A stretch of 57,983 nucleotides of DNA, counting the filler, from Sluysia triapertura (Eukaryota), in the NCBI GenBank assembly GCA_046118255.1. It is 4 parts of 4 records of this genome, joined end to end, with 100 filler letters (N's around TTAATTAATTAA, not from the genome) between each part and the next. Parts side by side here need not be neighbours in the genome. Positions count along the whole stretch, not along the records: positions 1 to 14,888 come from JBJNIA010245431.1; 3 more parts are not named here. One strand, 5' to 3'. Position 1 is the stretch's first letter; every line of letters starts with the position of its first letter. This document shows positions 1,856 through 31,015 of the stretch, piece by piece. Made by a program: the position numbers and the translations under genes. The notes below the pieces were generated by a model. The model was not told the DNA's origin. It saw only the letters and a program-made list of their open reading frames with translations, and searched no databases.

Positions 1856-2161
1856 TATTTTAAAATTTAATGGAAAATATAAAAGGAGGAAGCTTAGTAA
1901 AACAAAAGCATCAATATATTACATTTATTAGTTTATTGTATTTATTTTTTGTCCACACCTCTTAAAATTCATTGTTGTTTTGTCGTTACTTTTGACTTCG
2001 GTTTGAAATGATATATATAAGTGTATATGATAAGTATATAGATAAGTATATATGATAAAATATCTATAATGTTTTGTGTCGATGAGGATGTACGTCAACT
2101 TTATACGTGTGAATTTCGAAATATTAAGGTAATGTATTAATGTGAATCTCTTGAAATTTAA

Positions 2162-2640
2162 CTAATAATTCTTGGTGTTGTTTGCTTTACATGTTTTGCT
2201 ATCTCCACAAAAATAAAAGATTATAATATCATTATTAACAGTATAAAAATCAATTACTTCAAGTTCATTAATACTCAACTTGTTATTGTTCCCGTTCAGA
2301 TCTAATACTTCGAGACTTCTTAGGATGTTTCCGATTCTGGAGAAAGGATCGATGTATTGTACAAATTCGGTATCGAGAATTGTTAGTTGATCCACTATAG
2401 GCAACCGCTCCCATATTTGACACAAATTCCATCTTGGTTACTATCTAATAAGCATATTGACTTTTTGGTAACTTCATAAGAATTTGGTGAGTTAATAGCA
2501 TTTGTGGATTTATCTAATCGTATGTCGTATTCGAATTCATAATGGTATAAATTGTCAGGATAATTTTTGGTATTTTCTTCGTTTTTATTCACATGTTTTT
2601 GTTGTGATAATTCTGCGGTATAATATTTAATATCTGCCAT
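2162..2640 (-). pseudogene. Frameshifted ORF of unknown function, divergent from the Gypsy-like element
   Basis: Two overlapping minus-strand ORFs (MADIKYYTAEL... from ATG 2640; ...IVDQLTILDTEFVQYIDPFSRIG...) with protein-like composition; no family recognised. Confidence 0.35.
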
Positions 2641-3819
2641 CACATTGTTAGCCTTTTCTGTGAAAAAACTAACAATTATGATTTGTAAATAAACGTGTTC
2701 GTCTGTATATTGCACTTTACGTCTGGCCGAAGACGCAACTACAGATAAAATGTGAAAATAATTTAACGCTCCTTACAAGCAGAATTCTTTCAATGTAGTA
2801 ATTAATTTTTTTACTTTATTCCTTTCTGTAAGCTCTCACCTAATATATTTTAAAAAATATACTATTAAGTCGATATTCTTAACGCAAAATTAACGTAATG
2901 TCTTTAATTTCTTAATTAACTTAATATATTTATTTAAAAAATTTATACTCCAAGTTTTAATACTATTCTTATTAATTTTAAAACTCTTTACTCTATCTTT
3001 TTGTGAAATGAAAAATTACAAAACACCAAATTTTTATTATAAAATTGAATAATATAATAAGTAATATATAAAAAATGACATATAATATAATGCAATAATA
3101 CTTTAAAAATAAAGGGTTTAAGGTTTATTTAATTTTTAGATTTTAAAAGTTTAATTGATCCAGGTGTGATAATTGGCAATAGGTTTATAAGATTTTGAGT
3201 ATGATTTTGACACAATAAATTATTTATGTGGAAACTTAATAATTATCAACTTACGTTTACTAAAAATTCGATACGTCCAGATTTTAATTTCCCGGTAGAT
3301 GAATGAATCATTCGATTAATAGCTCCAAAAATTGATAATTTCCAGATTATAAAATGCAAATTCTTTTAGATCAATCACTTTAAATCATTTTCCAGCGATT
3401 CCAACAAGAACTTTCTTGCAAATTAACTTTTATCAACGTTGCTTTATTAAATTTCCACAAAAATGATCTCTTTATATATGATAATTATTTTGACGAGAGA
3501 AAAATTTTATAATCATTTTATTATTTTTAATATCATTAAATATGCATAAAAAATCATATAAAATTCTTTTATGGGTCCATAAAATATGAAATTAAAATAT
3601 AATTCTTTTGTGTTTATAAGATTAAAATATGATATTAAAATATGAAAATTCTTATTAAAAATATTTATAGAATTAAATTAAAAAGATTTTATTTTATTAG
3701 ATATTGAAAATAAATTATTTACAAGTTTACAAATAAAAATTAAAAATTATTTACAGAATAAAAATTTACAAACACAGTTTTATTCACTTTTACTCTTTAC
3801 ACAAAATTAAATCTAACAT

Positions 3820-3837
3820 TGGTGCCCGAAGAGAGGA
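3820..3837 (+). promoter_or_regulatory. Primer-binding site (tRNA-Lys(UUU)-like) directly after an LTR-type end
   Basis: ...ATCTAACA(3818) T TGGTGCCCGAAGAGAGGA; the first 11 nt match the tRNA-Lys3 PBS TGGCGCCCGAA at 10/11 positions. Confidence 0.7.
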
Positions 3838-4165
3838 TACTCGATGCACATCCATAAATTATAAAATATAAAGTTATAGTAAGACTATCAAAAGTGTTCA
3901 CGAGAGATTTTAATTTTGAATTTGTATTTTTATCTTTCATATTTAGATAGTGAATCTTAGAAATCGTATTAATTCAGATTTAGATCTTAGAAGTCGTACT
4001 AATTATAATTCAGATTCAGATAAAGAAAAAAATTTATATTTGAGAGCGAAAGAAAGAAGAAAGTAAAACCTAAAGATAATAAATAATAAACAAATAATAA
4101 TAAATAAAGATAAACAAATAATAAGTAAAGAAAATAAATTCATAGAAACCATATTTAAGAAGAAA

Positions 4166-5340
4166 ATGACTGATAAGATTATTACAAAAGAACAAATGGC
4201 GCAGCTTATAACCGCAATGAATAGACATCTATTAAATCAAAATCTGAAGATTGAAAAATTTTCAGGAAACGAAAACAAATTGTTAGACTTTTTAACCGAG
4301 TATAATGAAGAGGCAGACAACTTAGGCTGGAGCAATAGAAAAAAATGTTTGAAATTTGCATCATGCATAACTGGCCACGCAGCTAATGTCTTTAAATTCT
4401 TATCAGATGCAGCAAAACAGGAATGGAAAAAATTGAAAGTTGCTTTTATAAAAGATATAGTGGGGGATGACATAAACGACTCTTCAGAGAAAGAGTACAA
4501 CAACGTGATGAAACAGTGGCAGAATATTCATACCAATTAAGGATCCTAGCAGAAGAAGCATATCCATCTAAAACAAATGATGAGGAAAAACGACGAAAGA
4601 TTGATAAAAAGCTCACACAAAAATTTATTAAAGGAATAAAAAAGAATATTGGAATAATGTTAACAACATCTAATACCGAAGGATATCAAGAAACATTAGA
4701 AAAGCAAGAGAACTGGAGAAACAAATCAACGAAAAAGAACACATATAAACGCGATAACTGAAGTAAGTAAGACTATAAAGGAGAGATCCAGATCTCCAAT
4801 TTTAAAAAAAGTGAGTTAGCATGAAACACCAAAATCAATAATAAAAGAACAAATACATAGATAAAAATCAGCACAAAGTAATAATGAATTTAATAAATTT
4901 AATAAACCATTCGAAAATAAAATTAATCATAAATTTTATGAAAGTAATAGGCAATTGCAACACCAAGAAATAGTTATCCAACTCAATTTCCTAGAAGAGA
5001 ATCAATTACCTAGATACGTACCACCTAATAATTAGCCACGATCGCCAAGAAACTATAATCCAGGATACAGACATTTGAATTATACACCGTGAAATTAACA
5101 ACCAAATTATTATTCAAGGAATGAACCATCAAATTATCAATCAAAGTACTACCCAAGAAATATACAATTAAGTTCAAGATATAGACGAGCAAGTAAATCT
5201 CCAAACAGAACTCAATTTTACAATGATAATAATGATAAAACATCGATAGAAAGAAGCAAAGTAGATATATACGAGGAGAATCACTGTAATCACTGTAAAA
5301 CGTACGGACACTATGAAAAGGCGTGCCCAGAATACTCATC
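4166..5340 (+). pseudogene. gag: Retrotransposon gag (capsid plus CCHC nucleocapsid), frameshifted
   Basis: IEKFSGNENKLLDFLTEYNEEADNLGWS...ITGHAANVF...WKKLKVAF; VAEYSYQLRILAEEAYP...KFIKGI; zinc knuckle CNHCKTYGHYEKAC at 5285-5326. Confidence 0.88.
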
Positions 5341-6639
5341 AAATTTTCCTTTAGATGGAAAAAACCATGTTTATATGTTGAAGGATAATAAAAGCGAACT
5401 GACACCAGATTACGCTAGGATGGATGACGAAGCTTGTTGTGCATTGTATCAAAGAGAAAAGGTAGATAAAAAGGATGAGGAAGAAAAAGAAAAAAGAAAT
5501 CAAATGGATAACGGATTCAGAGGAGCATCAACACATGATGGCGAAGAAAACGATGATACTGATGATGATCTACTAGATACACCCAAGGCAAAGGCTGCTC
5601 AGGAAGGAACAAGAGAAATATTAATAAAATAAAACTTGGAACTTTGAGTAAAAAATATAGAGAAGGATTATTTAATGCCTTAAGAGAATTTATAATCGAA
5701 AAGGTTGAAATTGATTTAACAGAAGAAATGAGAGAAACGTTATTAAAAATAATTAGATGACAAAAATTTAATGAACACGAAAAGAAATATGCGAAAACTA
5801 TATTAAGAAATTATGGAAAACATATGAGACATAAAAATCCCAATCGAAAAATAAAAGCAGTATTACAGTTACCATAGGAAACTCGAGTATTGAAAAGACA
5901 TATTCATACAACAGGAAGATTTATTAGAAATAAAGTTATAGGAGAAATAAATTGCTACGGCATACAGATAAAAATTATGTTTAATGAAGAAGAATTAGAT
6001 GGTGACGATAAAATTGTAGATTGTGGATATCCAATTAGAGAAAATCATACAGAAAGAATAAAAATAATAATAGAGGAAAAGGATAATTTTTTAGAATAAA
6101 TATTAGGGGAAGATTGAATGAAGAATTATGATACAATAAATAATAAAAATATGGAGATACTATCAATAAACGATAACTAAATAGTCGACAACCAAATAAA
6201 TGCTAATCGAATGGACAGTAATCAAATAAATAACTATGAACAATAACCAGATAAATGATATTAAAGTAAAGGATAACCAAACGAATGATAATCAAACAAA
6301 TAATAATCAAAAAGAAAACATGCCAAATAACGTAACTAAGGCTTGAAAAGAAGTTGAAAATACATTGTTTCCAGAAGAGGTGATAGATCTAGATGATTAT
6401 GTTACATTTTATGAGCTGTTAAATAGAATAGAGAATGATAATACAGTTAAAGATGATAATTTAAAGAAAAAAGAAAATAAAACTGGAAACTGAAAGAAAA
6501 TGATAATGATGAAATACGAGAATTAATAAATAAAATTGAAAATGTAGTAAAACTAAGTATTGAAGGAAATAAGCTGTTAAATTCGAACTTATTAGGAAAA
6601 CAAATAGATCAAACAGTAATCACTCAAAACTTTCAAAGA

Positions 6640-8404
6640 TTGCTAATGAAAATTTTAATTTTATGTGGAATCAAACCAACAGTCATCCAGAGATCGGAAA
6701 TAGTTTCTCATTAGTAAACACAGATAATTGCCCAGACACTAACAAATTTATTTAATTTAGGGAACGAAATATTTCATGTATACGAAGAAAGTGGATTAAT
6801 ACGCACAGAGGTTAAGGAATGTGTAGTTAAGCGAGCTGTGAAGTTACAGTAAAGTTCCATGCGGTCAACATGGAACGGTTTATCCATTAAAAAAGAGAAC
6901 TCCTTTCATAGCGTTAATAATGTCCACAGAGACTTGCCTAGAAACTTTTCAAACTGAAAGAATAGGGATAAAAAGTGATTTAATAATTGAAGTAAAAAAG
7001 GGCATTATAAAGTACTATCGTTATTTTGCTGTAGGAAGTCACACGAAAGCAGATACGGATTTTTTACGGACGGAGATTATAATTTAGATGGAGTAACCTA
7101 TAAAACATGATCGCGACCGAATATTATATGACTGAACTAAAAACTTGGAGTGCGACTTTTGACTCGAGTACTAATAATATGATACAGGCACCAAACTGTA
7201 AAATAACGAATATAATTTGTGATACCGGAGAGTCTGTACTATTTTATAAAGTAAACAGATTTGAATGCTCATTAACTCATTTAAAAACATCAATGTTTAA
7301 CCAAACTAAAGGATTTATAAATGGAAAATTAGACGCAACACAAATTCTAAATGTTGAAAAAAGTAATAGAAACATACCCGACTACAAATCCCAGAAATAG
7401 AAGCACCAACTATTATAATGTCTACGAAATCAACAGATGGGATGGTGTTCGTCCTGAAAGAGAAAGTGACTAAGTGTGCAGAAGAGGTAATCAGCACAAA
7501 TTATCCTTGGATATTTGTTAGAAATCGACTACCAATCTCAAACGCAAAAACCGAATTAGTAGCTAGTGATGTGCAATTATATAACTATTTCAACAATAAG
7601 ATTAAATTTTATTACCATCTTGGATTGACTCAGTTAGAAAAAATTTACCAAATTCTAATGTACCGAGGCTGTCAATTAAATAAAGAATTAATAAGAACGA
7701 TTACTAACCCCGATATGGTAGCACCATTATTACTGTTGAAAGATGGAGTATTTGGGAAATCTATGAGAGAAGAGTCACGGTAAAACTATATGATAACATT
7801 GAATGTACGAAGAAGTTACCTGTAGAATACAATAACGAAAAAGATATATAGAACCAGTGACTAGAATTATAGTCCCTAAAGAAAATAAAGTCAAAAAACT
7901 AGATTGTTCAATATTAGTGTCCCCACTATATAAAATGCATGAAAATTATTTGATTTATCTATCATCGAGAATAAGAGTAGAATCTCCTCCAGCTCTAAGT
8001 TTAATAGATTTTAGTTTTCAAACGGAGAATGATATTTCGGAATGTATCAAATATCTGATATAAAGAAAGCTTGGAATGAAATATTATTAGCAATAAAAAG
8101 AGCACGAATATTAATCGAAATACTAGATGCTGCATTACCAAAAGGCGCTAAAGCACCTAATTACGAACTACCATCAACACAGAAGCACTTTGAACAAGCA
8201 GCGAAACAAACACTGCGTAAGATTTGGGGAAAATTTGCAGTCATTGGACAATTATGTTCGGGTCGCATCGAGATTTATATTGTTATTAAAGCCATTATTA
8301 TAGTGTGTACTCGAGTGCTATCAACTTACAATATATATCGGCTGAATATGGAGAATCATCACGGTATTGATCCCCTCCAAAGGTCATCATGTAGTGAGCC
8401 ATAA
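6640..8404 (+). pseudogene. env: Envelope glycoprotein, class III fusion type (chuvirus-G / herpes gB-like), fragmented
   Basis: Hydrophobic signal-like LLMKILILCG at ~6640; CKITNIICDTGESVLFY..C; NYFNNKIKF...LEKIYQILMYRGCQLNKELI..NPDMVAPLLL; ECTKKLPVEY..YIEPVTRIIV..DCSILVSPLYK; C-terminal WGKFAVIGQLCSG..IYIVIKAIIIV TM segment. The motif order matches chuvirus-type glycoproteins as I recall them. Confidence 0.75.
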
Positions 8405-8599
8405 ACATGCTGAAATAATACAAGAACTATCAAGTCCAAAAGCTCCAAAGAACTTTATTAATTATGAGAAAACTGGCGAGGTGATGGAAAATGAGGAATC
8501 TCTATATCCATTCAAAACTGTTGAAGAGATTCAAAACGAAAATAATAAAATAAATCCTATCAATAGAAAAAAATGTTATTATTTAAAGAAACACTATAA

Positions 8600-8890
8600 T
8601 GGCTATAATATCTACCAAAAAATATTAGTAAATAAATACTCTATTAAAAGACACAGAATCACAAGTTTTTGCAATTCGTTATAAATCTCTACCAACAAAA
8701 GATTAGGAAAAAATAATAATCAACAATGACTACCTAGAAGGAATAAATGGAGAGCTGATAAGCGTTAGAAGTTTCTTGGCTTATGTAGAGATAGTAAATC
8801 AAAAATGGAGAACAAGAATTTACATTTTAGATGAATGTTCAGAAAAAATGGTAATCTGTATGGACATACTACAGCAATTAAAAGACGTAA
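8600..8890 (+). pseudogene. Retropepsin-like aspartic protease domain 1 (degenerate)
   Basis: DTESQV at 8650 (D-T-G equivalent), LEGING flap, and C-terminal MVICMDIL (IxGxDxL-type motif). Confidence 0.65.
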
Positions 8891-9129
8891 TTATACATCC
8901 AACTCAAGGATTGTTAACACTAAGCGAAATAAAAGAAATTGCAACTGATCTAAACGTAATCACTATTAATGCAAATTCTATTGAAAATTTAGACATGATT
9001 TAGACAAAATATTCTAATGGAAAATGAAGACAGTTCTGAGATGGAAAATTTATCTAATACCGCGATTGATACAACGTCATCTGACAACATGTCAAATATA
9101 ACAACAACAGATAATTTAACAAGTAAAAT

Positions 9130-9450
9130 TACATTAGAAGACATAGCAGAATTACAGGAAGAGGTAATGATTTTGGAACAGAGAAACGATGAAGAGATAA
9201 TGAATATTATCAATAACATAACAAAAATATTTTCTCTAACTATCAAATTCAGAATATTTTAAAATACAAAATGGAAGATAAATTCTTAATTGTAGTATCC
9301 CAATCAAGAAACACCATCATGGCCACCATCATGGCGGGCTACCTTTCAGCGAAAAGAACCACTGAAAGGATAAAAATAAAGTATTATTGGATCAATATGG
9401 ACTGCGATATCACAAATTGGTGTAAAACAGTAAAATGTGTAATTTCTGGA
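9130..9450 (+). pseudogene. RNaseH-integrase linker plus integrase zinc-binding (H2C2) domain
   Basis: EQRNDEEIMNII...LIVV...AGYLSAKRTTERIKIKYYWINMDCDITNWCKT.KC matches GH.G..KT..RI...YYW..M..DI..W...C..C. Confidence 0.8.
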
Positions 9451-9529
9451 AGGAAGTGATAAAGGAGCAAATTAAACATGAAAGTATGCAAGATGATGAT
9501 CGCGATAATGCTAAGAAATGGAGTTAACT

Positions 9530-9800
9530 CCTTATAAATTGTAGCAGTGTGTAATAATTAATGGAAAGATAGATAGATACGGGTTCAGACGTAAGTATTA
9601 GACGATATGAAGACATACCAGAACAAGAAAAGATAACTTTAATAGAAGTACTTGAAAAGTTCGACAGAGTCGACATGGTATTTAATCGATGGAGAGTAGA
9701 AATTAAAATTGAACAATATAACTTCCACATAGAGATAGCAATAGTAGGCAATTGTCCAGAAGAAGTAATAATTGGAATTAGAAACGTTTCCGGAAATACT
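9530..9800 (+). pseudogene. Retropepsin-like aspartic protease domain 2
   Basis: IDTGSDVSI at 9573-9599, then ...VEIKIEQYNFHIEIAIVGNCPEEVIIG. Confidence 0.75.
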
Positions 9801-10574
9801 TATAAAAAGGAATAAAATTAAAAATAGATTAAAGAATCCAAACACTATAGAAATTCTACCAAATAAAAATCAGCTTATCTTTCAAGAAAGAAGACGATAT
9901 AAATATATGTTTAATGGATGAGATCAATATATAGAATCGGAAGATTTATTACAGAGATTAGAAAACACTTGCAAAAAACCCAAAAAAATATGAATAAACT
10001 GGAAACTACGGTCAATATCACGAAATCCTTTATAATTATATGCGATCTGAAACACAGACTAAACATAATAATACAAAATTGACCATTTCATCAGAAAAAG
10101 AAAATATAGAATTCTTCAGTAACATGGTAAACATGGAAATGAATTGGTTTTGAAGAACTAATATGAAAGTTGTAATGAGAATAGATGGAACACAAAAAAA
10201 TAGAAAAGGAATTTCATATCCAGTATCATATTTACTGGATTTCGTAAAAACATACTTGAATACAACACAAATAATAAATTTTCATTATAGAGGAAGAGTA
10301 TTGAACCGAGACAATGGACTATATTTAATTGATTTAGGATTTCCAATAAACTATTTGAGCGGCGATGATGAAATTACAATTACAATTGGTAGCGATGAAA
10401 ATAGCGATCCTAAATCTTCTAATGAAACACAAATACATTTAGAAACCGTAAATCGGGAATTCTATTGTGAGGTGTTTAGAGAATTATCAATAAAAAAATC
10501 AACAACGAGAAAGACTGTTACACACCGACTCACTTATTAGTCAAAACATGATGAGACGGAGAATAAATTATAAG

Positions 10575-10830
10575 AATAAATTTTGCATAACAGTAGAATT
10601 TAAAGGGAAAAGTTATAAAGTAATACTAGATATGGGAGCAACACATTCAATAATTAGATATCAAATTCTAAATGACAATATAAGAAACAAAATCATATTG
10701 TCGATTAACTATAGCTTCCATTACTGGTAGTCAAATTATTTTTATAGGAAAATTGGAAAGAGAAATTTCAATATCACAAAAAATCATTAAATGTAAAGCC
10801 AGAGTACTGTCTATACGATATTATAGAACA
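10575..10830 (+). pseudogene. Retropepsin-like aspartic protease domain 3
   Basis: FCITVEFKGKSYKVILDMGATHSII (LD[T]GATHS motif, Asp at 10629), then TGSQIIFIG flap after a frameshift. Confidence 0.75.
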
Positions 10831-11569
10831 AATTCTAGAGATATTAATGCAAAAGGAAGCTGAACTATGGAGCAGAAAAGAAGCACTTCTAAACGAAGGA
10901 AGACTACTAATGTTCCACAAAACAGAACCAAGTCCACATTAACATAATCATCTATATGAAGAATTAGAAAATGCATTAAGAACACCTGGAAATGTAGAAA
11001 GGCTAAAAAGTAGTAATTGATATCGTTTTAGAATCAGAAGAATTATTACATGAATATCCACCTCTTAAACATCAATTAAATGGCATCCCGCTTTTACTTT
11101 TGATGTCTGTACTTTTTATTTGATTCTGCCCCAACTCCTTTACCTTCATTCTATATGTACCGAGTCACAATCACAGAATGTGATATTTATTATAGGAAAA
11201 TCTTTAGTAGCTCATACGAATTTACTATAAAATACCGAATAAGAGTGTTGATATTTATCAACCTCCTACTTTTTCTGGCATTGATGTCCTGCACAATGGA
11301 TTTCAGGTGCCAAAATCTGATTATCCACCACGACTGACTAAGTCGCAAAGGCATGATTACAGACGACACCAGCTTAAAAAATTTTATAGAAAAAATGCAC
11401 GATTATGTGAGAATCTTTTCATAAAACAACACTAATTGCTTCCTAAGTATTATTAACTATAATTGTATTAATACATAAAAACCTATATAAAAATTACTTT
11501 TAAAAAATCACTCTTTGTGTATTTTTCCTTTTGTATGTATATTTCAAGTTTTGTTCTTTTTTAGTACAA

Positions 11570-12706
11570 AATCATCACAAATACTACAACAATCTCAACA
11601 TCTTCGTCGACCTCACGCCAAAGTACTTAATCAGATTAGGGCTTTCTATGCGGCGATAGACCGCTTTTGTTTAGAGAACACGACCGCGCATTTTCCCCCA
11701 CTTATTTCGCCACTGACTGTAAGCTGATGTCTGAGCTTACAGACAACTTGGCGACTCATATTTTTTCTTTATCTAGCGCACAAGCATCTATTTCTCTGCG
11801 CGGCCTCTCTAATGCTCCCGAAGTTTTTGATACCTTATATGTGGTTTATGCGCGTGGAATGGTTAGGGTATCTCTGGTGGTTGAAGGGGTTCCACTGTTG
11901 CTGGGCCTGGAGGGTTTGTCAATTTTCTACCAGGTAATGCAATGTTATGGTGGAAGCACTCCAGCTTCCAACATACATTGCCCTTTTATTCGTGCTGCCA
12001 AGAGATCCGTCTTTTCTCCCTCTTTTTTTCCGCAGCGGAAAATACAGATAATATGAACTGTTGGAGAAATGGATCATCTTATACGCATGTTCCATCCCTT
12101 TCTGCGTATGATGAGGACCGTCTCATGTTTGTGGTGTTCCATTGCGCCACAGATTTCTTGAATAATCTTCAGATTATTTGCGTGACTTGCACACCATACA
12201 ATGGCCAATTTGATACTGAGGCTCGCATTAAACCTCGATACAGAACTTCCGCAGGAACAGATGTCGACCTTCGGTTGGCTAAGAATATCGACAAAATCCG
12301 CCCATAAATAACTGGAATTTTGCGCAACAAGATTATGGTGGAGTTAAACCCACAATTTATTATTGACGCTTTGTATATTCCCTTTGGGCTGTTAAAGGAA
12401 ATTATCAATCGGTCGAACAATATTTTGGTCCCTTTTACCACATACGTTGTTTTTTGTAGGACGCGTCAAACATTACGGCTGATTTTCCCTATTTGCTCGG
12501 TGTTGACTTGTCGACAGATGGCCACAGAGTTTGTGGCTCTGTTCCACTATATTAGGGAACGCGATTTACAATTTATTACTAGGTGTAATAATCTCCCTCT
12601 CCTTCTCTTCACAAACCCCTTCTCGACTTATTTCTCCTCCTCTCAAAAAATTAAAACTTACTTCTCATTCTTCTTTTTCTACTTGTTCCTCACCCCTTTC
12701 TCGTAA
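11570..12706 (+). pseudogene. GC-richer accessory ORF of unknown function in the 3' part of the retroelement
   Basis: Chain of plus-strand ORFs (11667-12056, 11942-12307, 12320-12706) joinable by a frameshift and a single stop; base composition differs clearly from the A-rich gag/pol region. Confidence 0.5.
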
Positions 12707-12886
12707 ATTCCATGCATATACGAAGACTCATTTTTATACAGAATTTACCATCTCCTAGACGACTTAGATCCTGTAGACTTAGACTGAGTACCTTTATAAC
12801 TATCAATGATTATTATGTGATTGATTATAATAATAATTAATATTAACTTTGATTTGCGGACAAATCTTCCCGAAAGAGAAAGTATT

Positions 12887-14084
12887 TGTCAGGTTGTAAA
12901 TTTTGTAAATTAAAAAATTTGTATATTTTATGTATTTAAGTTTTATATTCTTAATTTTTATTTTATGCATTTTATTAAATTTTATTAAATAATTATTTAT
13001 CTTATATTAAAATAATAATGAAAAAAATTAAAATAATTATAAACTTAAGAAACTTAAAAAATTAAAATAAAATTGTTGGATAAAAATAAAATAAAATTTT
13101 AATATAAAATAAATTATTTAATTTTAAATAAAATAAAATTAATGTTTTGTTCAAAAGTAATTTTTGTTTTATCTTATCAATTTAATAATTTAGGTAAAAG
13201 GTTAAGATGGCGCTAGCGAATTTAATATAAATAGTTGAGATTTTAGGAGAAGAAACAGAATAAATTTTTAGCGACACAAGGAAATCACAATAAATGTTCA
13301 AGCAAAAAATTCAAGTGAAATTTAGCAAAGTTTGAATAAAAGATTAGATAATTTTATGAAAAAAGGATTTTCAATAAATAATTAATTTTAAATTTCAAAT
13401 TTAGTTTAAAAAATTTTTATTTTAATTTTAAAAAAATTATTTTGTTTTTTTAAATATAAACAAATATTTCATTTATTCAAATATAAAGAAAATTTTGCTA
13501 GGTAGATTTTTCTTTATTTTAAATTTTAAGATTTGTTTTATTACATCAAAAGTAAGATAAGAAATACGAGATGGAGAATTTTAGTACAAATATTTAAGGA
13601 ATTTTAGCAAAAGACAATTTTTTAGCTAAGAAATTACCAAATCAAATTTTTTAGTTTTTCTATGGTGAAGTAATTTTTTAATTAATAAGATTTTAGTTTT
13701 ACCTTAATAAGGAAAGCATAATATTCACTAAAAATATATACTTTTTATCTAGACCGTAACAGGCTAGAGAAACTAAACATAAAATTTGTATAATGAACCA
13801 AGGAAAATAATCCAGTGAGTGTAATTTAAAATTATTATAATTATTATTATAAGTGTTTACTGTGAGTGTTGTTTAACATTGTTTAACAGAAGTCTTCATA
13901 GAACTTTATTTTTACTTTTATAAAATAATTGTGAAAACTAGACCGTACAAGGATAGTGTAAAGTAATAAAAGTCATTTACAAGGCTAGTGTAAAATAGGA
14001 ATTTGTCATATACTAGATCGTAACACGGCTAATGTAATACAAAATAAAATAAAAATATATTTTGTTTACGACGAATATCGTACA
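12887..14084 (+). repeat. 3' LTR (LTR family A); 3' end approximate
   Basis: Follows the PPT, starts TGTCAG, has ATGGCG...TATAAATA promoter block at ~13207-13233 and repeated CTAGACCGTA..GGCTAG hairpins; similar to 19600-20400 and 38151-39062. Confidence 0.7.
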
Positions 14085-14888
14085 GTTTCTTAAGGTTTTA
14101 CATAAACGTAGCTTAGGCAGCCTATTTACTCTTTTGCGGTTCGTTTTTTAAAATCCTAATAGCACGTCTTCCACATTGATATAAACCGTGAACTCGACTC
14201 TTAGATATTATTGTGTAATTGTAAGTTTTTAGCTTTACTAATAAAAAACCCTAGCAATATTTTTAACACTCTTTAAACTTAAAAGTAATTTTAATTATCA
14301 TTTAACATTTTTACTGTCCTTAAGCCGTTTAAATACAAATATAATAAATTAGAACTTCTGCTGCAATATTTAGACGTGTTCTAGTATGCTTTTTGGTATT
14401 GATAAAAATGCGCTTTCAGTTATAACAAAAATATACGTGGTATTCAATATTTATTAGAACGTTTTTATTTTTTAACGAAATTTACAATGTAAATTCTTAT
14501 AATACTAAAACAGTGCGAATAATCGCTTTTTTGTGCAGAAAAAATTATTTTTCCATTCAATACTTATTTTGATCATTAAAAGTGGATTACCATAATGTGT
14601 ATATAATGGAATGCCATACTAAATACAGCTGTATGAATTCATAATGAGCGTAACCAATCACAATATGGTACATGATAGACTTGAGGGCGTTTGATTAGAA
14701 AATGTAGGAAAGTAGTAATAACTTGAGTATTTTAAAAGCTTACATTCACTCCTATTGATCATAGGTAACAAAGTTTTGTAAACTAAGATACAATATCACT
14801 GGATTCCTTCGTTATACTTTAAGGACATTTTTAACTTATAAGATTTAAAATTAGGATTCATTTTGTTATGAGCTGTACTATTATAAAA

Positions 14889-14988
14889 NNNNNNNNNNNN
14901 NNNNNNNNNNNNNNNNNNNNNNNNNNNNNNNNTTAATTAATTAANNNNNNNNNNNNNNNNNNNNNNNNNNNNNNNNNNNNNNNNNNNN
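14889..14988. other. Artificial contig spacer
   Basis: 44 N + TTAATTAATTAA (stops in all six frames) + 44 N. Confidence 0.98.
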
Positions 14989-17900
14989 ACTAGCTGTAAT
15001 GTTATCTATCAAATGTTTATTATTCTGAGTCTAAAATCATACAACAATTATAGATGTCAAACTTATGCTATTTGGCTATACCATTCAAGGATTTATTTTT
15101 CGCTTATTCAAAGCGAGTTTAGAAATTGTTATTTTAAATAAGATCACAAATTAAAGATGATTTTGAAAAAAACATAAAATTACTATCGAATAGTCTACTC
15201 GGTTTCCTTTTGAACAAAGCAAGACAGATTTTAAATTATTTTAAAACTAAATAATTTAGTTCCGAAGATAAATTTCGAAAAAAATAGCAATAAGTCTTTG
15301 ACAAAACTACATCGATTAGGCTACATAGATATTAATCAACAAAATAATTGCAAAACAATGTTACAAATTCTAATTTGTAACAATTATCAACAAATGGTTT
15401 GTTAATCTATCATCTATTTTAAAATGATTTTATGTTAAGTTTAAGATTGACAAACCATATAATTTCACAAACCAAGGTTTATTTTATGGAAAATATCTTT
15501 TTGTTATCCGAAGTTTTCAGATATAGCCTTTAAATGTACTACATTTATCGAACTATAACTGATTTAATTACTGATTACTTTCCAAATATTAATTTATTAA
15601 ACGAACTGTTAAATCTATTATACGAATAATTATTGAATAGTCTTCAAAAAATCAATTTAATTCTATTATGTGAATGATCAAGTATGCGTCATACTTTTGA
15701 GAACGTAGTTGTATATATAGACTATTTTTAATAGTTTGACCTGAAAGGTCTTTCAAATGTGTTTCGAAGTAAAATATTGAATTAAAATATTATTAATATT
15801 AAAATATGATATAGTGGATTTTTTATTTATTTTATTTATTTATTTTTAAGTTTTAAATTTAATTCCAAAATATTTTGCTTTGGCACCGATATTTTTGGCA
15901 CTTTAAAAATCACGTAATCAGACGAAGTAATCAGATATCATAATAATTAATAACAATATGACTATTAATTATTACATCATTCAATTCACATTGTTAATAT
16001 CAATATTACTTTTTTATATTATTGTAAACATTCTAAGTTCTTTAAATCTCTTTTCTATTATAGATAATCTTACATAATTTTACACAAATAAAATAAGAAT
16101 GTGAGTTGAGAATGTTTGGCCTGTCAATGATCTGCAGAATGAAATTATTTGCTTAAAGAATATTTATGTCTTAAACTATTTTTCTTTGTATCATATTTTA
16201 AGCCGCAACATCTTACACGAATTAAATATAATAATTTAATTTAAAATAAATAGGGAGTGTTATATGGTGAATTTTTGGGAATGTGAGTTTGTAGATATTC
16301 TAAAACTTAATAATGGTAATTCTCTTGCATCATTTTGCATTGCATTGGGAATTTAAGTATACTCTGTGTCTAATCTTTAATTTGATCTTCAGCATAAATT
16401 AACACATTATTTAAAATGTGTGTAACGAATATTAATGTCGGTGTAGAAATGTTTAAGGGACAATGCTATAAATTGTGTGAGTATTAAAGTGTATGATAAA
16501 CGATGTATAAGGACTTTGTGATTTCTAAACGTGGATTTACAGAATAATGTTATAATATTATTTAATAGTGTAAAAATATAAATAACATATCATTCCTCAT
16601 TCAAAAGTTATTCACACAAACGTAATTTTCTTTAATTAAGTTAATTAAGATTTTAATTAATTATTTATTTATTTTACCTTATTTTATTCTGTGTTTAAAG
16701 GTTTTATCATGGTTATAAAGTTGTTAGATACTTTATAAGGTACTCAGGAGGCTCTAGATTTTTTCACATTCATCATTCTGATTCCTTTTTCTGCTTTTTT
16801 ATTTCAGTTATTAATGTATTAAAATTATCTTTAATATTATTAACCATGATTTTAATTCTTGAACATTTCAAAGGTTCCAAACATTTTACAAGGTTACTCG
16901 AAGGTCTCAAAAGTTTATTAAGGTCTTGAACGTCTTCAAAGATTCCAAAATATCAACAAGGTCTCAAATGATCCTGATTTTCAGAAGTTTAAAGGTATCT
17001 TCATACTTCAAGATACCTTTCCAAACCTTACATAAGACTTCATAATGGTCTCAATACCCTAGAAAGGTCTTTGGAACTCCAAGATGTTCTTTGGTTTCAA
17101 AATGATTATAAACATTTTACTGTTCATTATTCTTGTTCTAGTAATATTTAATTATGTTTATATTATCATATTTCAGATATTTTATATCACTTTTCCTTAC
17201 ACATATTTTAAATTCTTTTACTTTTTAATCTACTTCTTACACTAACTGGATAATCCCAACAAATTCACATTTAATTACTAATGCTAATTCAATCAATTTA
17301 TCTCAATCTCTTATAATATTCGACTTATAATATTTACCTTCTTTTTATTATACTTTAAACTTATGCATTTTAATTCATTTAATACTAAACAAATGATTGC
17401 TAACTTAATAATAAAATTCTATAAATCCTTATCATGCGAATGTCAATACCAACTTTTTATTAAATCAAACTAATATTTTACAATTATTAATTTATTCTCA
17501 CCAAAACGTTAATATATTAACTTTTAAAACCAAAATTTTAAATTCAAAAACAACAATATGAATATGTATTATGTTAATGTTTATAACATACAAAATATTT
17601 ATAAATGTTTAAAAGTACAATATGACTAAAATAAAATATAAACACGATAATAATATAAAGATGATCAAATAATTTATGCTTAGAAATGGGTATTTCTAAT
17701 TTAACTTGTTAAATCTAATGGAGACTTTATCTCTAGCCAAAACTAGAGTTTTTAATGGTTTATTGTATTACATAGAATGTGTCTCCTTTAACATAGACAA
17801 AATTAACTTACAAAAATTTTAAAGGAAGGTTCGAAAATAAGTAACACCGCATAATATTAATCCAAAAGATACTATTGTCTACAATTACTGTATTCTCCTT

Positions 17901-18229
17901 GATAAGATGAATAACAATAATGCTTTTTCTGCTTCTCCGAATTCAAAGCTCGTAAATCGTTGTTACAAAGATTTTCAAAAATTGTACGTGAAAAGATTTT
18001 AAACAGAATTGTTTTGCGAGTTACTAATAATTCAGTATTTATATGTCTGAATAATATGGGCGTATCACAAGTAATTATTAAGTGATTATTATTATCAGAA
18101 GTTAATTTTCATTTATTATTATTATAATTATATTATTATTATTATTATTTTCCATCATAATTTCAGGTATTAACTGTGCACTCTAATACATTCTTATAAT
18201 GATATGAATATGTATTTTCATTTATTAGT

Positions 18230-18371
18230 GAATGATTATTCTTCAGGAACGGTTAATTAAATAAAATGTATCTAATTAGTCTGACTAACCTTCAGAAAAC
18301 TTATTTTGCTAGTTAAGTTTCTTCTACGTAGAATCACAGCAGAATGATTATTCTTCAGGAATGGTTAATTA
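18230..18371 (+). repeat. 30-bp direct repeat pair (period 112)
   Basis: GAATGATTATTCTTCAGGAAYGGTTAATTA at 18230-18259 and 18342-18371. Confidence 0.85.
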
Positions 18372-18407
18372 TCAAAATGAGTTAGATTTATCAATAATGA
18401 ATAAAAG

Positions 18408-18510
18408 TGTTAGACTTCATTGAATGGACTGACAGGGATTTATGGCTGTGACCATTAAGTATAAGTCCAATCTCACAATTTTATTTTATTATAGTTAATT
18501 ATAGTAGCAT
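18408..18510 (-). mobile_element. Degenerate, internally deleted copy of the tRNA-cassette element
   Basis: TGTTAGACTTCATTGAATGGACTGACAGGGATT... closely matches the starts of the copies at 34902 and 48730. Confidence 0.75.
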
Positions 18511-19599
18511 TATTCTCACCCAATTCATGGACATAGCTGCAAGATTCATTTTGTTTTATTATTGTTATTGAGTTTAAAAATTTTCAAGCATTCTATTTTA
18601 ACAATCAGGCATTCTCTCACACAAATAATCTGAATGTTCTTTGAGAATGAGACAGACAATAAAAACTTTGACAATTATATGGTACGGTCTTCCAAATCTT
18701 ACTCGGTGCTATAAAGAACTTGATGGCGTAATGAAACTTTACTTAACTCTGACTTGAGTATAAATTCATATTTTTTCCTTATCCCTCAGATTATGTAATT
18801 TGTCTAACTGTCCTACTATTATTTTATTCCTTTTATTTCTGATTTTGTCTAACTCACAGCTGTAAACTTTTAGTAATTTTATCATCTCGTCGATAATTTA
18901 TAATTTTTATTAAACCTTTATTTTTACTTAATTTAAATGCCGGCTTAAAGTTGTACAAACGATTTAGCATTAATTCAATATTCAATTTAACAAACAATAA
19001 ATACATAGTGAACAATGATAACATATTAAATAAACAAAGATCAAATGAAATGTTACTTCGTACATTCTGTCTCAAGCGATGTCAAAATTCTTTGATGAAC
19101 CGAGAGCAGATAATGTTGCGTCTTTAATGTTATTAATAACAATGGATTAATATCATTTCCATTTACTTAAATAGAATCTCAATAATTTCAATACTTACTA
19201 GATCAAATATAAATTATCACAAATTTTCTTATTTTAATAATGATATTTATTCAACCCCAAAATTGCGTTCTTCAATTCATATTAATAACAGTAACTCAAT
19301 AATTTAATAATTACAAAATCAAATACAGATTTCTATTAAAAGTCTCCGCTTTAACAATAATATGAATTAACTAAAAATGACTAAATCTGAGAATTAACAA
19401 TAGTTTTTATAACAATATTAAGCAAACTATAATCTATCCAAAGAAACCAGAGGTGACGCAACAAATATCAAATTGCAAGATATTTCCTCTTATGCAAAAT
19501 AGTTCTGGAGTCTGTCCGACTAACTAGGCACGATTTATATCAAAAGATGACATCCTAATTAGATTTTAAAAAGATAATTAAACAGAATTTAAAGGACTT

Positions 19600-20400
19600 A
19601 AATTAATTAGTTCCTTAAAAAATATAGTTCAGTAAATGAATAAATCTTTCTCGTCAAACTCTTAAAGTACTTGGTTAAACCAGCCTTCGTACGGTCTGGT
19701 CAATAATAATATATGTTAGGCTTTGAACCAGCCTTTTTACGGCCTGGTCAATATATGAAGATTTTAAATAAATATTAAATATGCAAATGAAAAAATTTAT
19801 TATTAAATCAAAGACAATTTAAATTAATAACACTATTTATATAATGTATAATAAAAATACGCAGTCTAGATCTTAAGTTCGACACTTAGATCAAGTTATT
19901 TTAAAAGATTTTAAGTCAGCCTTTTTACGGTCTGACATATATTAAAAAAGGTTGAGTGATATTTTATGTTCTATTGTTTTACAATTAGAACTAGAAAATC
20001 TTATACAGAAATTAATTACTTTTTCATGGAATAATGATTGAAATCTTCAACAAAATTGTAAGAGCAGCGCTGAATTTTCTAGATTGTCTTCTGTGTGTGT
20101 TTTTTCTAGATTGTGTAATGTTATTTATACATAATTTAACTTACTCGCCTCCATATTTTAAAATAGTACATTAAAACAAAAGTTTTAACTTTAATTCTGA
20201 TTTTAATTAATTAAATTTTAACTTAAATTCTGATTTTAATTTATAATACTAATGATAATATTTTATGATTTTAATTTATAATAATAATGATAATATTTAA
20301 ATAAATAAAATGAATATTAATAATGAAATAATAATGTCAAATAATAAAATGAATAGTCAACCATAATAAAATAATAATCAAATAAATAATCAAATGTAAT
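19600..20400 (-). repeat. Solo LTR-like copy of family A (boundaries approximate)
   Basis: Three hairpin motifs (19679, 19727, 19915), AGGTTGAGTG and TTCATGGAA..GAAATCTT blocks shared with 38520-38615, and a minus-strand GGCG..TATAAATA block at ~20120-20150. Confidence 0.6.
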
Positions 20401-20550
20401 AAGATAATAAATATCAAATAATAAAAGGAATAATCACCGAATCCATTAAAATATCATTGTGTGCTAATTGTGTGCCAATTGTATCAGATTGTGCCAAATC
20501 CAATAAACTGTAATGGTAAAATAAGCATAAGAAATACTTGAATTAAAGAA

Positions 20551-21075
20551 CATCACACAATATAACACTTTCATGAATGTGCAATGATCGTGGAATCGAA
20601 CACAGTGCAATTTTTCAATCAACTAAATCTTTCATATTACGTTTAAACATTTCTGGTAATAAACCAACATAAAGGGAAATTTTATTATTTACATAAATGA
20701 CAATTTAATATATCTTCTCTAGAATTCATCATAAAATCTATAAATTCTTGCAATCTATGATGTTTCAGAGTTATCACGTAAAAAATTCAATGTAATAACT
20801 ATGTAGGAAGATGATACACCTTCATGAATTTGTTTCCCTCGATCGGTATAATCTCCTTGGAATAAGTATTCAATATCATCTGGTAAACCAATATATGAAA
20901 TATATCGCCCATGTGTATCTCCATAGATTTCAGCTTTTTATTAGGTTGAAACGAAATTACTTTTTGGACTATATGGTTCACGTTCAAAATATCTTTAAAA
21001 TATAATTTAACCGGTTTTCCTGTTTATTTTGGACATACAATAGTTCTATTATTTCCGTTAAATTTAAAGTTACAT
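20551..21075 (-). pseudogene. PP1: Ser/Thr protein phosphatase 1 catalytic subunit pseudogene (PPP family)
   Basis: Minus-strand translation: IYGDTHGRY (GDxHG, 20922-20908), YLFQGDYTDRGKQ (GDxVDRG, 20856-20836), LRDNSE..IARIYRFYDEF*RRY (cf. LRGNHE..INRIYGFYDECKRRY), ..ILCD. Stops and deletions throughout. Confidence 0.88.
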
Positions 21076-21202
21076 TTTCGCATTTGATGAGAAACAGGAT
21101 CACTGATTTTATTTAAATTGTTTTGCTTAAATTGTTTATTTAAATTTCACCATAAAAATTTTTTACTAATTTAATTATATAATAATGATAATATAATAAT
21201 AA

Positions 21203-21244
<42 letters not shown>

Positions 21245-21263
21245 ATTATTATTATTATTATTA
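21203..21263. repeat. (ATT)n microsatellite
   Basis: Long ATT run; similar runs at ~18115-18150, 32468-32503 and 46790-46838. Confidence 0.9.
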
Positions 21264-23119
21264 CAGCAATAATTGAAAAATAATAATAATGTCGGTTTTT
21301 AACTAAGAGAATAGTAACGTTTAATCCTTTAGCTAGATCACGATTATTTCTTCCTTTGTCTAACGTATCATTAATAAAGTGAACAACGTTAATGTTATTT
21401 CTTCCAAAGTGAGAAATATTTGAGACATGAGCTATGTCAAATAAATCATAAAATGTGTGATGAATTTTAGTTTCATTTGGGATTTTTTAAATGCTACATA
21501 ATTTTTGCAAGATCTACATATAACAAAAACAGCTTTATCAATGGTCTTTTCATAAACATAAACATATGAATTTGAATAATATTATTTTTCATGAAACATT
21601 AATTAAATGACCTTTAATGAATTTAAATAATGATAAAGCCACTTTAAATTACTTCTGTTGGGATTAGTGAAAGATAAATATCGATATAAGGGTCAGGACT
21701 GAGGATAATAGAATAAGGTGAATGTTATTGAAGAATTAAGATAAAGTATTATGATGAACTGTAATAGTAAAATAAGCATAAGAAATACTTGAATTAAAAC
21801 AAATTAATGAGAAATATGAAGAAATAACCCTTTAAAAGGTTTTATTTGTTAAAATATTAAAGTTCATTTGTTAATTAACTTAATTAAAATTTGTTTAATT
21901 TGATAATTCAATAAAAATGTTTGCTCATGATATAATAATATTGAGTTTTATTAGTATTTTTAATGATGAAGTTTGCGAAGCTTGTCAACGTTGATAACGT
22001 AATTTATAATTTAATTTTTATAATTTATAATTTATAATTTTTATAATTTAAAATTAAAGTTAAATATAAGAATTAATAATATATATATCAAATTAATGCT
22101 TATAGAGAGACCAATTCAAACATGTTATTGAACTTGACGTGCAACTACAATTGACGCATAACGTATTAATGCGGAATATTCCTTTGAGAAATAAATTTAA
22201 TGTTTCATTAATTTTATCTTTAAATTAAGTTGACAAATTATTAATATAATAACAATATAATAATGATTTTTAATGTTAATTAGATGGTTTCCAAAGGATA
22301 AAGAGATTGTCTACCACAAATCCCATTATCTTAGCATAATTAGAATGATAATGACGTTGAACATAGACGGAAATTGCTGTCAAAATCTATAAAATTGGTG
22401 GACTTATTGGCGTATAAAATAAAAACGACAGCTTTAATTTCCGTCTTGTTCAATTTCTGATTTGTATTTTCTCTAATTATCTTAAAATTGCTATATAAGA
22501 GTTACATTTCTGCAAGAAAAACAGAAGTGAAGCCGACGTTAAGACGGATTAAAGAAAAATCAAATTAATTTTTCAACTGCAGGGAGGCTGCTCTAGTTCA
22601 TTAGTGGATAACGGTGACATTAAAGTTATTTCTTTAGTAATTGTCTAAAATAAACCATTTTCTTTTTAGAACAAGGATTAGTCATACATTTCTTATTGTT
22701 TATATTTTGCATTAATCCGGGTGCTAAAGTTTAAATAAGTTGTATCATCAATGGTTGTGATTTAGCTTTAAAGAATAATTTTCATTTTTATAAAGAGTAA
22801 TTTGTATTGTCATAGTTATAAAGAGTAGTTTATATATTTTCGCTGTAATCTTGTGATAATATAAAAAATATATCGAGATTTTGAATTTATTTAGTTATTG
22901 AGTTTTAATTTAATAAGTTTAGGAAAATAAAATTATTAAAAGACACAACGGTTCCGTAAACCTTTCTAGCCTCTGGATATTTCTGATAAAAGTCAGGATG
23001 ACTGCTAAATATTAACCCTTTGCGCGATTAATAAAAAAGAAAATAATTATTTTCAAGATTATATATACTTATTTGGTTTATAGTAAATTGTGTTATCAAA
23101 TTGTAAGTAAATATAATTT

Positions 23120-23731
23120 CTAGATGTTTTGAATCTCAGTATTTTTATCTAATCGACCATTTCTAAGTAAAGCAGGATCTAATATATCTACTCTGTTAGT
23201 ATCTGCCATTACTTTTATATCATGATTTGGTTGGAATCCATCTAAGTGATTTAGTAATTCCAACATAGTACGTTGAACCTCACGATCATTAACTTCCATT
23301 GCTTTAACGCGTGAATCAATTTCAGCAGGTAATTTTTCTAAAATTAAATACGAATCTTTATTGACACCAACTAAATCGCCTGGTTTTAAATCAGATGCTT
23401 CAACTAAACCTATTATTGGTAGAAAATAAGTATGTCTAGTACTGGTTTTGACTACAGCACATTTACCTTTTCTCTGGGCATCTAAATCAAGGTTACTACC
23501 TTCTTCTTCATCAGGGTCAGGTTCAACATCCAATAATTCTATCACATTTGATACTAAATAAGACAGAGCTTTATTTGATTTAATTTTCCTTTTATTTTCT
23601 TTAATTATATCTTGCTAAGTTTTCGTTTCATGATTAACATGTGTTAATTCAGATTTCATAATTCTAATTTCAGTTTCTAATAGCCTTATTGGATTTGAAA
23701 GATCATCGTTTGATATTATTAATTCTGCCAT
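23120..23731 (-). pseudogene. PSMC3: 26S proteasome regulatory ATPase 6A (Rpt5) pseudogene with internal deletion
   Basis: RLLETEIRIMKSE...[11 protein letters not shown]...[24 protein letters not shown]...SRVKAMEV joined directly to [17 protein letters not shown]...[12 protein letters not shown]. In-frame TAG at 23617-23615; Walker A and B are absent; C-terminus truncated. Confidence 0.92.
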
Positions 23732-25301
23732 GGTAAAAAATATAGTATAGCATTGGGGAAAAACATTGAAGAAAAACAAAAAAATAGAAAGACGGATTAA
23801 AAATAAGGATAAAAGAAATAATAATGATAACAATAACATGGTTATTATATTTATTAATACTGAAGTGTTTATGTTAAAATTTATTATAAAAGTTATTACT
23901 TGATAATCATGTTATATAACAATAATGACAATAACTATTATATATATTTTAATACGATCTGAATTGTAATAACAATAACGGTAGATCATGATAATTAGAT
24001 GCGATGATCATGCTTTGTTTTTTGAATGAGTTTAGTAGTTTGTTTAATAGTTTGTGTACATGTGAAGTGTTTTTATGTGATGAAGTGTGATGAATTCCCT
24101 AGAGATGATATTTACAATTATAAATAACAAGAAACGGTTATTAAGACTACTTACATATCCAAATATAATATATGTATACTTATCTATTTTTAACCATGAA
24201 AAATGATTCTATAAAAAGTAAAAAGTCAGTTACAACTCCAGGTATATGTAAAAGGAAACACCAGGTAATAAATTTTAAAATATAAGTTAATAAAACGCGA
24301 ATCGAACAATCTCTAAACTAACTTGAATATCTTGAATATTTCTTCGAATTCGATCACGAGAATTATCCGGGGATTCCGTTACTTCGACATGTAGAGCCTG
24401 AAGTTCGTTTACCTGAAACAAAACAATGACTGAAGTGCATCTTTTGAAGACTGATTAATATTAATTTCGTCTGATTTTAAAATGAATATTTATTATTTTA
24501 GAGAATCATAATAATTAAAAGTGAACAATGTTTAATTAAAAATAACCTGATACAGGAAACTGGGAATAAGTTACTATGGAAACAGTATCTAACTAAACCA
24601 TTATAACCAAGAATAAGCATGTATGAAATATTGACATATTAGTACAGTTGATGAATGACTGTTTCTCCATGAAAAAGAAATTGATTGAAATTACAGTAAC
24701 CGAATAGTTAGAGAAAACTTATAATAAAAGGAGAATGCAATACAACGAAACCTATTGGCTACAATGGATAGCAAAATAGCCAATGGTATAAAAAAGAAAA
24801 TTTTTAGTCTATATACGTAGATCAATTACAATAAGACAAAAGATGTCTCACGATATTTACAGAGGAATTTAATGACAAAGATCGATTTATTCAACATTTT
24901 GAAAAAAGAAATTAATCATACGAAGATGTTACTGTATCGAATTTTATTTTATTATTTTTTTAAAAAGAAAACCATAACAATAAGTGGTAGCTAAAACATA
25001 TTTTTGTATAAAAAATTTATTTGTGTTGTGTATTTATTCACAATAATTCAATAATGAAATTAGTTTAAAATATCTTAACATTTGTATCACTAAACAGGTA
25101 CAAATTATTGCTTATTCTTTGATAATAATATACTCTTAATATTCTCAGTTATAAATAAATTAAATATAACACAATCAAATAACAAAATACAATTCTAAAA
25201 ATCCAGCGGTAACACTACACGTAAAATGTATTTAAAACAAATGTATAAAAACGTGGATTAATTAACAACAATAATAAAAATAACATCACTCTAATATTTA
25301 A

Positions 25302-28109: not shown

Positions 28110-28676
28110 TCATTTTGTTTTTCTTTGAATAAAATTTTTTACCTGTTCTAATAACCAGTCAAAACCTTGCTGCAATCCTTCTCCAGTTAAGGCATTACTA
28201 GATACAATATTCCATGTATGATCTTTAACTTCATCAAGACATAGAATTTGTGTACACTTAACACTTGTTACTGCATCTTTGGCATCCATTTTATTAGCAA
28301 AAAACAAAATTGGTACTTTTCTTAAACCTTTATCACTTAATATAGTGTCTAATTCATCCTTTGCGACCACCATTCTTAAATGATCAGAACTATCTATAAC
28401 AAATATTATTGCATCACTATCTTTAATATAAGTATTCCACAAGTTACGATAACGACCTTGTCCACTCATATCAAAACAGGTTAAGTTTAAACCTTTGGTA
28501 CAAATTTTTTCTACGTTAAAACCAATAGTTGGTACTATATCATGACTCTGGATATTTGGTGGTTTTATTTTATTTAGAATAGTAGTTTTGCCACTATTAT
28601 CTAAACCAACTACTAAAACTTTAGCTTCTTTTTTACGTGCACCAAAAAAGCTAATAAGAGATTCCAAAAATCCCAT
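28110..28676 (-). CDS. ARL6: ADP-ribosylation factor-like protein 6 (BBS3), intronless
   Basis: MG N-terminus, [14 protein letters not shown], the ARL6-diagnostic [40 protein letters not shown] and GEGLQ.G.DWL. Confidence 0.95.
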
Positions 28677-30915: not shown

Positions 30916-31015
30916 NNNNNNNNNNNNNNNNNNNNNNNNNNNNNNNNNNNNNNNNNNNNTTAATTAATTAANNNNNNNNNNNNNNNNNNNNNNNNNNNNN
31001 NNNNNNNNNNNNNNN
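30916..31015. other. Artificial contig spacer
   Basis: 44 N + TTAATTAATTAA + 44 N. Confidence 0.98.

Follow-up and report, generated by a model that had tools for sequence, protein, structure and literature searches.

The window, the whole stretch of Sluysia triapertura DNA that was analysed (57,983 nucleotides, filler included), carries a retroelement remnant on its + strand. Element signal spans about positions 3800–11400, a remnant of ~7.6 kb, and a strong A-over-T skew from ~4000 to 11000 marks one + strand coding unit. The window is AT-rich (19–43% GC per kb). The features are as follows, with related proteins and loci given P and L numbers.

3820–3836 (+): primer-binding-site-like motif starting TGG, one base past a CA (read directly)
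4067–4758 (+): gag capsid region in two frame pieces (tblastn with P0007 residues 12–184; Retrotrans_gag, E 0.041)
5285–5326 (+): single CCHC zinc knuckle (nucleocapsid; read directly, weak phmmer matches)
5671–6072 (+): helical segment and ubiquitin-like domain between gag and env (profile of relatives)
6640–6743 (+): decayed internal signal sequence, with the ectodomain start following in a second frame (profile of the signal regions of 14 relatives)
6744–8229 (+): ectodomain of a class III (chuvirus/gB-type) fusion glycoprotein (PF24664, tblastn, P0003 fold)
7370–7780 (+): PF24664 piece 1, profile positions 246–348 (E 1.3e-8)
7842–8060 (+): PF24664 piece 2, profile positions 410–459 (E 2.4e-4)
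8033–8401 (+): PF24664 piece 3, profile positions 477–581 (E 2.4e-8)
8230–8344 (+): C-terminal transmembrane (TM; stop-transfer) segment (hydropathy; tblastn alignment to the TM of relatives)
8346–8681 (+): stop-free linker of 112 codons, headed by the env cytoplasmic tail and overlapping the protease start
8644–8898 (+): aspartic protease 1, with one stop and a degenerate catalytic triplet (protease profile of relatives, iE 4e-8)
9071–9510 (+): RNase H–integrase linker and integrase H2C2 zinc domain (Integrase_H2C2, E 4.6e-7)
9567–9779 (+): aspartic protease-like domain 2 (iE 6e-7)
10154–10537 (+): 128-codon ORF, possibly a second ubiquitin-like domain (a lead only; Atlas rows)
10581–10809 (+): aspartic protease-like domain 3, in two frames (iE 1.3e-5 and 0.004; Asp_protease_2, E 0.022)

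The 6640–8344 region encodes a chuvirus/gB-type (class III) fusion glycoprotein, placed between gag (4187–4710) and the first protease (8644–8898) as the initial annotation had proposed. PF24664 (Monjiviricetes_fusion) matches in three of the 21 segments scanned with Pfam, and the pieces are ordered as in the profile. The intact relative P0001 aligns with the window by tblastn in six collinear pieces across 6766–8341 (three frames, 31–46% identity, E 4e-70). The ectodomain is split into at least six frame pieces in the window copy, and ~10 frame changes can be counted by eye in env. DNA polymerase B clusters, returned as low-recognition rows by an Atlas search with an env piece, were set aside as chance.

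Both the signal-like start and the C-terminal TM of the initial annotation can be recognized. A hydrophobic stretch at 6640–6681 is weak alone against the signal-region profile of the 14 relatives (iE 3.8) and is followed, in a different frame, by the ectodomain start at 6681–6743 (iE 2.6e-5); the cleavage-site motif of the relatives is unrecognisable in the window copy. At the other end, hydropathy reaches 2.3 at position 8267, the sole peak of at least 1.9 in the three + frames of 4100–10300, and charged residues are present within this TM segment. The fold is modelled on P0003, a natural relative that is 30–41% identical to the env pieces of the window (tblastn). Herpesvirus gB occupies all 37 of the PDB rows listed for its AlphaFold model (pLDDT 78), with a top E of 9.6e-14 against HSV gB and a TM-score of only 0.33–0.40. 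The best match among viral models is chuvirus G (E 3e-41), so that a structural match to class III fusogens is obtained for the model of a relative.

Upstream of env, the gag segment at 4187–4710 matches P0007 (tblastn, E 2e-15), and the knuckle matches those of P0008, P0025 and P0006 weakly (phmmer, domain E 0.02–0.03). The spacer that follows contains the helical and ubiquitin-like module. A profile built from five relatives only matches 5671–6030 at iE 6.4e-9, with the next match at 0.37, and the same module stands before env in each of these five. Ubiquitin-like chains make up 29 of the 30 PDB matches of a six-row profile of the module (best E 0.0076), and the L002 copy matches Pfam ubiquitin (E 0.0047). 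For the possible second domain at 10154–10537, ubiquitin/SUMO-like Atlas rows score 0.83–0.84, under the 0.9 bar, with a model pLDDT of 37; Pfam and PDB searches give it no support. A Bcl-2-like stretch with a GGW motif at its end lies just before env in P0002, P0003, P0013, P0025, L001 and L002 (Pfam Bcl-2 in P0003, E 0.00096). A profile of six relatives finds no Bcl-2-like remnant in the window element, the best iE being only 0.36.

Downstream of env, the env-tail profile has its best match within the element at 8349–8423, weak alone (iE 0.074) and collinear with 8324–8344. Protease 1 alone finds no match in a PDB sequence search. A 784-position RT-RH-IN profile matches the element just at profile positions 465–573 (iE 2e-12) and, weakly, at 413–480; by this profile the copy lacks RT and RNase H before 9071–9510 and, beyond it, the integrase core. 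The H2C2 domain of the window is a gypsy-type trait, as is the PR-RT-RH-IN order of the relatives. Hydrophobic stretches are present at 11076 and 11245, and the post-integrase membrane module of the relatives goes undetected in the window (profile, best iE 0.16). A non-LTR-type reverse transcriptase fragment lies far downstream (36277–36774, − strand; RVT_1, E 3e-10) in a GC-richer island at 35000–37000; it is unrelated to the element (element profile iE 0.16).

The CA next to the primer-binding-site-like motif is probably the end of a 5′ LTR remnant, and summed contig depth climbs from 621 to 2785 in the bin containing the motif. Repeat search and self-BLAST detect no LTR pair in the window, and none is found in L001–L003. 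The window copy is dead. With a broken env and no RT, RNase H or integrase core it cannot be infectious, and the potential infectivity suggested by the initial annotation does not extend to this copy. The absence of RT also means that the copy cannot be placed in an RT tree.

Continuity of the coding unit was measured as the share of a region covered by stop-free stretches of at least 40 codons, relative to 200 shuffles. Openness is 70% in the gag–env spacer (17% shuffled; 0 of 200 shuffles reach 70%), 94% in env (34% shuffled; 0 of 200 reach it) and 95% in the env–protease linker (20% shuffled; 2 of 200 reach it). Gag also lies far above its shuffles in + strand stop-free stretches, and two flanks do not depart from chance, their values being reached in 81 and 153 of 200 shuffles. 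Coding-like sequence does run into and out of env, as first described. Minus-strand openness is 0.92 in gag, 0.90 in the spacer, 0.45 in env and 0 in the linker; given the high minus-strand values in gag and spacer, openness alone is no proof there. The stop-free stretches tile the + coding unit and overlap where the frame changes. The window copy itself is not one open frame, and since no intact copy of its own family has been seen, a single ORF for that family is something we infer.

Relatives were collected with phmmer from 1.84 billion proteins, giving 54 matches, of which 11 are at least 1100 aa long. With the env frame as query, two word-index searches of protein sequences returned no match, unlike the full HMMER scan. 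No match to phage records was obtained with tblastn. Of the candidate stretches, 102 viral and 74 from prokaryote genomes, none was confirmed as a locus, whereas three of at least 593 metagenome candidates were. A protease follows env within the same protein in 11 of the 18 matches scanned with Pfam; P0003 and P0013 stop at env. Among 16 long ORFs, eight have a CCHC knuckle before env, seven (two near-identical) also have a protease motif after it, and three (P0008, P0031 and L003) hold knuckle, env, protease and RT together. At the DNA level L003 forms a single ORF of 2693 aa, and L001 likewise a single one of at least 3426 aa; in L002, one of the three loci, one in-frame stop separates the Bcl-2-like stretch from the env signal.

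A hydrophobic stretch lies directly before the [AGT][YF]DC ectodomain start in all 12 of 12 relatives and reaches the TM threshold in nine. The env C-terminus has one TM peak in eight of the 12, two in one, and either none above threshold or an earlier end in three. A second, weaker hydrophobic stretch after the TM reaches threshold in just one of 12. The closest relatives encode gag, env, protease and RT as one polyprotein with an internal signal before the ectodomain. The gag-env-pro order proposed for the window is thus kept in relatives, and the single polyprotein holds for the intact L003, P0008 and P0031, not for the window copy, which is itself broken. The database entry for P0008 (HBK71150.1), a full gag-env-pol retroelement polyprotein, describes it as a hypothetical protein and assigns it to a Flavobacteriaceae MAG; we reject the label ‘Flavobacteriaceae bacterium’, as this is likely a mis-binned eukaryotic (animal) contig.

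Some relatives carry further modules. In P0058 (4844 aa) Pfam marks six protease stretches and the protease motif matches eight times, and the corresponding counts in P0006 are three and four; P0002 is also among the relatives that stack many aspartic-protease-like domains in one polyprotein, and in P0001 and P0058 protease domains follow the integrase too. Protease repetition is a trait of the lineage, with three domains in the window and six or more in P0058. P0058 also has ankyrin and C2H2 zinc-finger matches. Paired hydrophobic peaks ~240–350 residues apart occur after the integrase, in the C-termini of P0001, P0008, P0056 and P0058 and in L001 ORF 2–10282. The pairing suggests a second signal–ectodomain–TM module, one that has no Pfam name. 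L001 has an apparent further module of this type between its proteases (by eye), and a separate downstream 496-aa ORF (10617–12107, + strand) with an RNase T-family exonuclease domain (E 1.4e-5).

The 6640–8344 region is very probably the broken env of a Burro-like Ty3/gypsy element that is dead and has lost internal parts; the intact relatives of this element are read in one frame and likely thread the ER membrane. Hydropathy and the conserved motif at the ectodomain start point to this topology, and infectivity of the intact forms is likewise predicted. Synthesis would begin with Gag in the cytosol, after which the internal hydrophobic signal would direct the ribosome to the ER and be cleaved by signal peptidase immediately ahead of the conserved ectodomain start. 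Translocation of the ectodomain into the lumen would continue until the C-terminal helix stopped transfer, with the tail, proteases, RT and integrase back in the cytosol and the element's own protease freeing the Gag and Pol products. A functional Pol would require the weaker hydrophobic stretch after the TM to remain on the cytosolic side. By comparison with the structural polyproteins of alphaviruses and flaviviruses, Gag, Env and Pol would be made at ~1:1:1, and Gag would be membrane-tethered beside Env until cut loose. Retroviruses avoid the production of capsid, fusogen and polymerase from a single chain by splicing env. Nematode endogenous retroviruses (NERV) are said to carry a continuous gag-env-pro-pol ORF. 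Intact short relatives such as L003 would make production of capsid, fusogen and polymerase from one chain testable.

Sister copies were surveyed by contig depth in one public run, possibly from the source sample. A total of 4676 contigs align to 1900–14800, most of them less than 95% alike and 284 of the 4676 at least 99% alike. Summed depth, which is not a copy number, is 1666–22185 over 3624–11381 versus 321–917 and 645–1715 in the flanks; values in env (7566–12440) and gag (5985–6888) are both ~10× those of the flanks. The 10520–10950 bin is an exception at 106, versus 12959–22185 in the adjoining bins, and few sister copies may carry protease-like domain 3.

An addition to the reading of a dead Burro-like element, which we hold as possible but somewhat doubtful, is that the form without RT and integrase core is an abundant non-autonomous family spread by a helper Pol. 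The number and divergence of the contigs and the excess of element depth over the flanks fit such a family, and divergent contigs that are collinear over 8567–8985 (50 differences in 426) and ~8950–9140, flanking the RT gap, hint at it. However, copy number cannot be read from summed depth, the run possibly represents the source sample, and among the divergent contigs listed none clearly bridges the join with long arms. A broader proposal is rather unlikely as a whole: a widespread lineage of enveloped, single-polyprotein Burro-like elements with multiple membrane crossings, up to eight protease-like domains and a post-integrase signal-plus-TM module, in which the window would represent an abundant RT-less satellite (capsid, env and three proteases, with a helper polymerase) in a non-planarian animal.

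We consider it improbable that the gag-env-pro order is real while env was once a separate ORF, or one reached by read-through or frameshift, its continuity being only apparent from decay. The in-frame stop of L002 just before the env signal is in keeping with a separate ORF, as is the ~250 nt of spacer (6096–6347) without a 40-codon open frame. One passage of Chary and Hayashi (PMC13524379) speaks of ‘ORFs arranged as GAG-ENV-POL’ with gaps of up to 2 kb allowed, and the word polyprotein is absent from their preprint text. Set against these points, the window is stop-free both from spacer into signal (6481–6711) and from tail to protease start (8346–8681), and env and protease are fused in the 11 of 18 scanned relatives.

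The env tree was built on the longest unbroken env piece and contains 47 of 62 candidate rows plus the query, matches of fewer than 80 query residues being excluded. The window groups with the polyprotein envs (32 of the 47 rows) with support of 94/96, and the other 15 rows, mostly stand-alone G proteins of 570–690 aa, are set apart; P0050 (~700 aa) sits inside the polyprotein-env group. The window lies on a long branch (nearest row 43% over 136 columns), which is unstarred, and long branches meet nearby. That the glycoprotein is a separate insertion (a chuvirus-derived EVE or the env of another element) nested in an env-less gypsy copy is very improbable and largely refuted: invertebrate genomes commonly contain chuvirus G insertions (PMC7642597) and depth dips at 6210–6640, just before env, but polyprotein envs are the closest proteins (E 1e-45 to 1e-22, with stand-alone G only at E 1e-7 or weaker), these relatives also share, in unchanged order, the ubiquitin-like module and env tail that flank the window glycoprotein, no direct repeat of at least 25 nt among those listed frames env, and env depth is like that of gag and protease. 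Because the ubiquitin-like module between gag and env is common to five relatives, env is not taken as a nested insertion, the alternative that the initial annotation had itself raised.

In Burro/GYPSM1, a giant Ty3/gypsy element of planarians (Dugesiidae), env lies between gag and pol in the same frame as both and is preceded by Ubi/SUMO-like and BCL2 motifs; its env has matches to mononegavirus fusion glycoproteins, its product is a multi-domain polyprotein, and it measures 25–30 kb, with an internal region of up to 25 kb and long LTRs (Arkhipova and Yushenova 2019, PMC6431247). The window shares the mononegavirus-type env between gag and protease and the ubiquitin/SUMO-like domain between gag and env, and its relatives share Bcl-2-like (P0003) and ankyrin (P0058) domains, both named for Burro. 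The single in-frame polyprotein is present in L003, P0008 and P0031, whereas the window copy is broken, with stop-free sequence across both junctions. The window also differs in being a ~7.6 kb remnant with one knuckle and no LTR pair, in showing no Bcl-2-like, MATH or BIR match, and in the absence of RT, RNase H and integrase core; its three protease domains have no counterpart mentioned in the Burro section of PMC6431247. The element resembles Burro in its way of working and carries the diagnostic spacer domain of Burro, but size and BCL2 features fail, so we file it as Burro-like, not Burro.

Errantiviruses with a GAG-ENV-POL order and an HSV/gB-type ENV are described from Platyhelminthes, Bryozoa and Nematoda (Chary and Hayashi 2026, PMC13524379), with the same gene order and a class III ectodomain between signal/TM and TM. 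By eye, the window env looks like six Schmidtea ‘Platyhelminthes_C1a’ rows and unlike the nematode rows alongside, in part 7 of 114 of supplementary file 2 of that paper, other rows of which may be closer. A hand count over one window stretch gives 17 of 38 residues identical to the Schmidtea errantivirus 1 row of this file. The elements of PMC13524379 are intact, whereas the window copy is decayed, has no LTR pair and has 284 of 4676 contigs at least 99% alike. Polyprotein topology, ubiquitin-like domains and repeated proteases are undiscussed in the passages of PMC13524379 covered. NERV (Sacco et al. 2022), as cited there, have env and pol flipped, and the nematode env rows of the supplement are visibly farther from the window env than the flatworm rows. 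Anakin-type Bel/Pao elements of mosquitoes also carry a chuvirus-type glycoprotein (chuvirus G) on an LTR retroelement (Dezordi et al. 2020, PMC7642597), but belong to another superfamily: the relatives here have gypsy-type RT_RNaseH, H2C2 and rve, and no Bel/Pao families are listed in their Pfam scans. The Anakin env lies 3′ of pol, whereas the window env lies 5′ of the protease.

The gag-env-pol layout is already known, and the polyprotein inference of the initial annotation was right without being new. That its distinct lineage is an undescribed one is not supported, given the in-frame env of planarian Burro (PMC6431247) and the GAG-ENV-POL order in three phyla as described in PMC13524379. 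Because the layout is known, the window copy is a modest addition, and residual novelty may lie in the protease stacking, the extra membrane module of the relatives and the possible RT-less family. A literature search on repeated proteases, ubiquitin-like domains or a post-integrase module in such elements, mostly outside subscription journals, returned nothing relevant. Compact Burro-like elements with a ubiquitin-like–env–protease module are hereby placed in another AT-rich animal genome and in several metagenome contigs.

The rest of the window contains an intronless ARL6/BBS3 gene (28110–28715, − strand), at 55–63% identity to named proteins, whether from molluscs, vertebrates, annelids or cnidarians; its two closest matches are at 74% and 66%. 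This divergence (at most 63% identity to any named protein listed) marks the source as an apparently fast-evolving, poorly sampled animal. A HAD hydrolase gene is also present, and a proteasome ATPase-like piece (23120–23911, − strand) with an apparent internal deletion and an AAT repeat interruption is probably a pseudogene. The N gaps at 14849–14988, 30916–31015 and 43492–43591 have a central 12-nt palindromic spacer, a scaffolding artefact. ARAGORN finds no tRNA genes in the window. A 52-nt repeat with a tRNA-like box occurs in five copies (18408, 30556, 34764, 34902 and 48730) and probably represents a SINE family.
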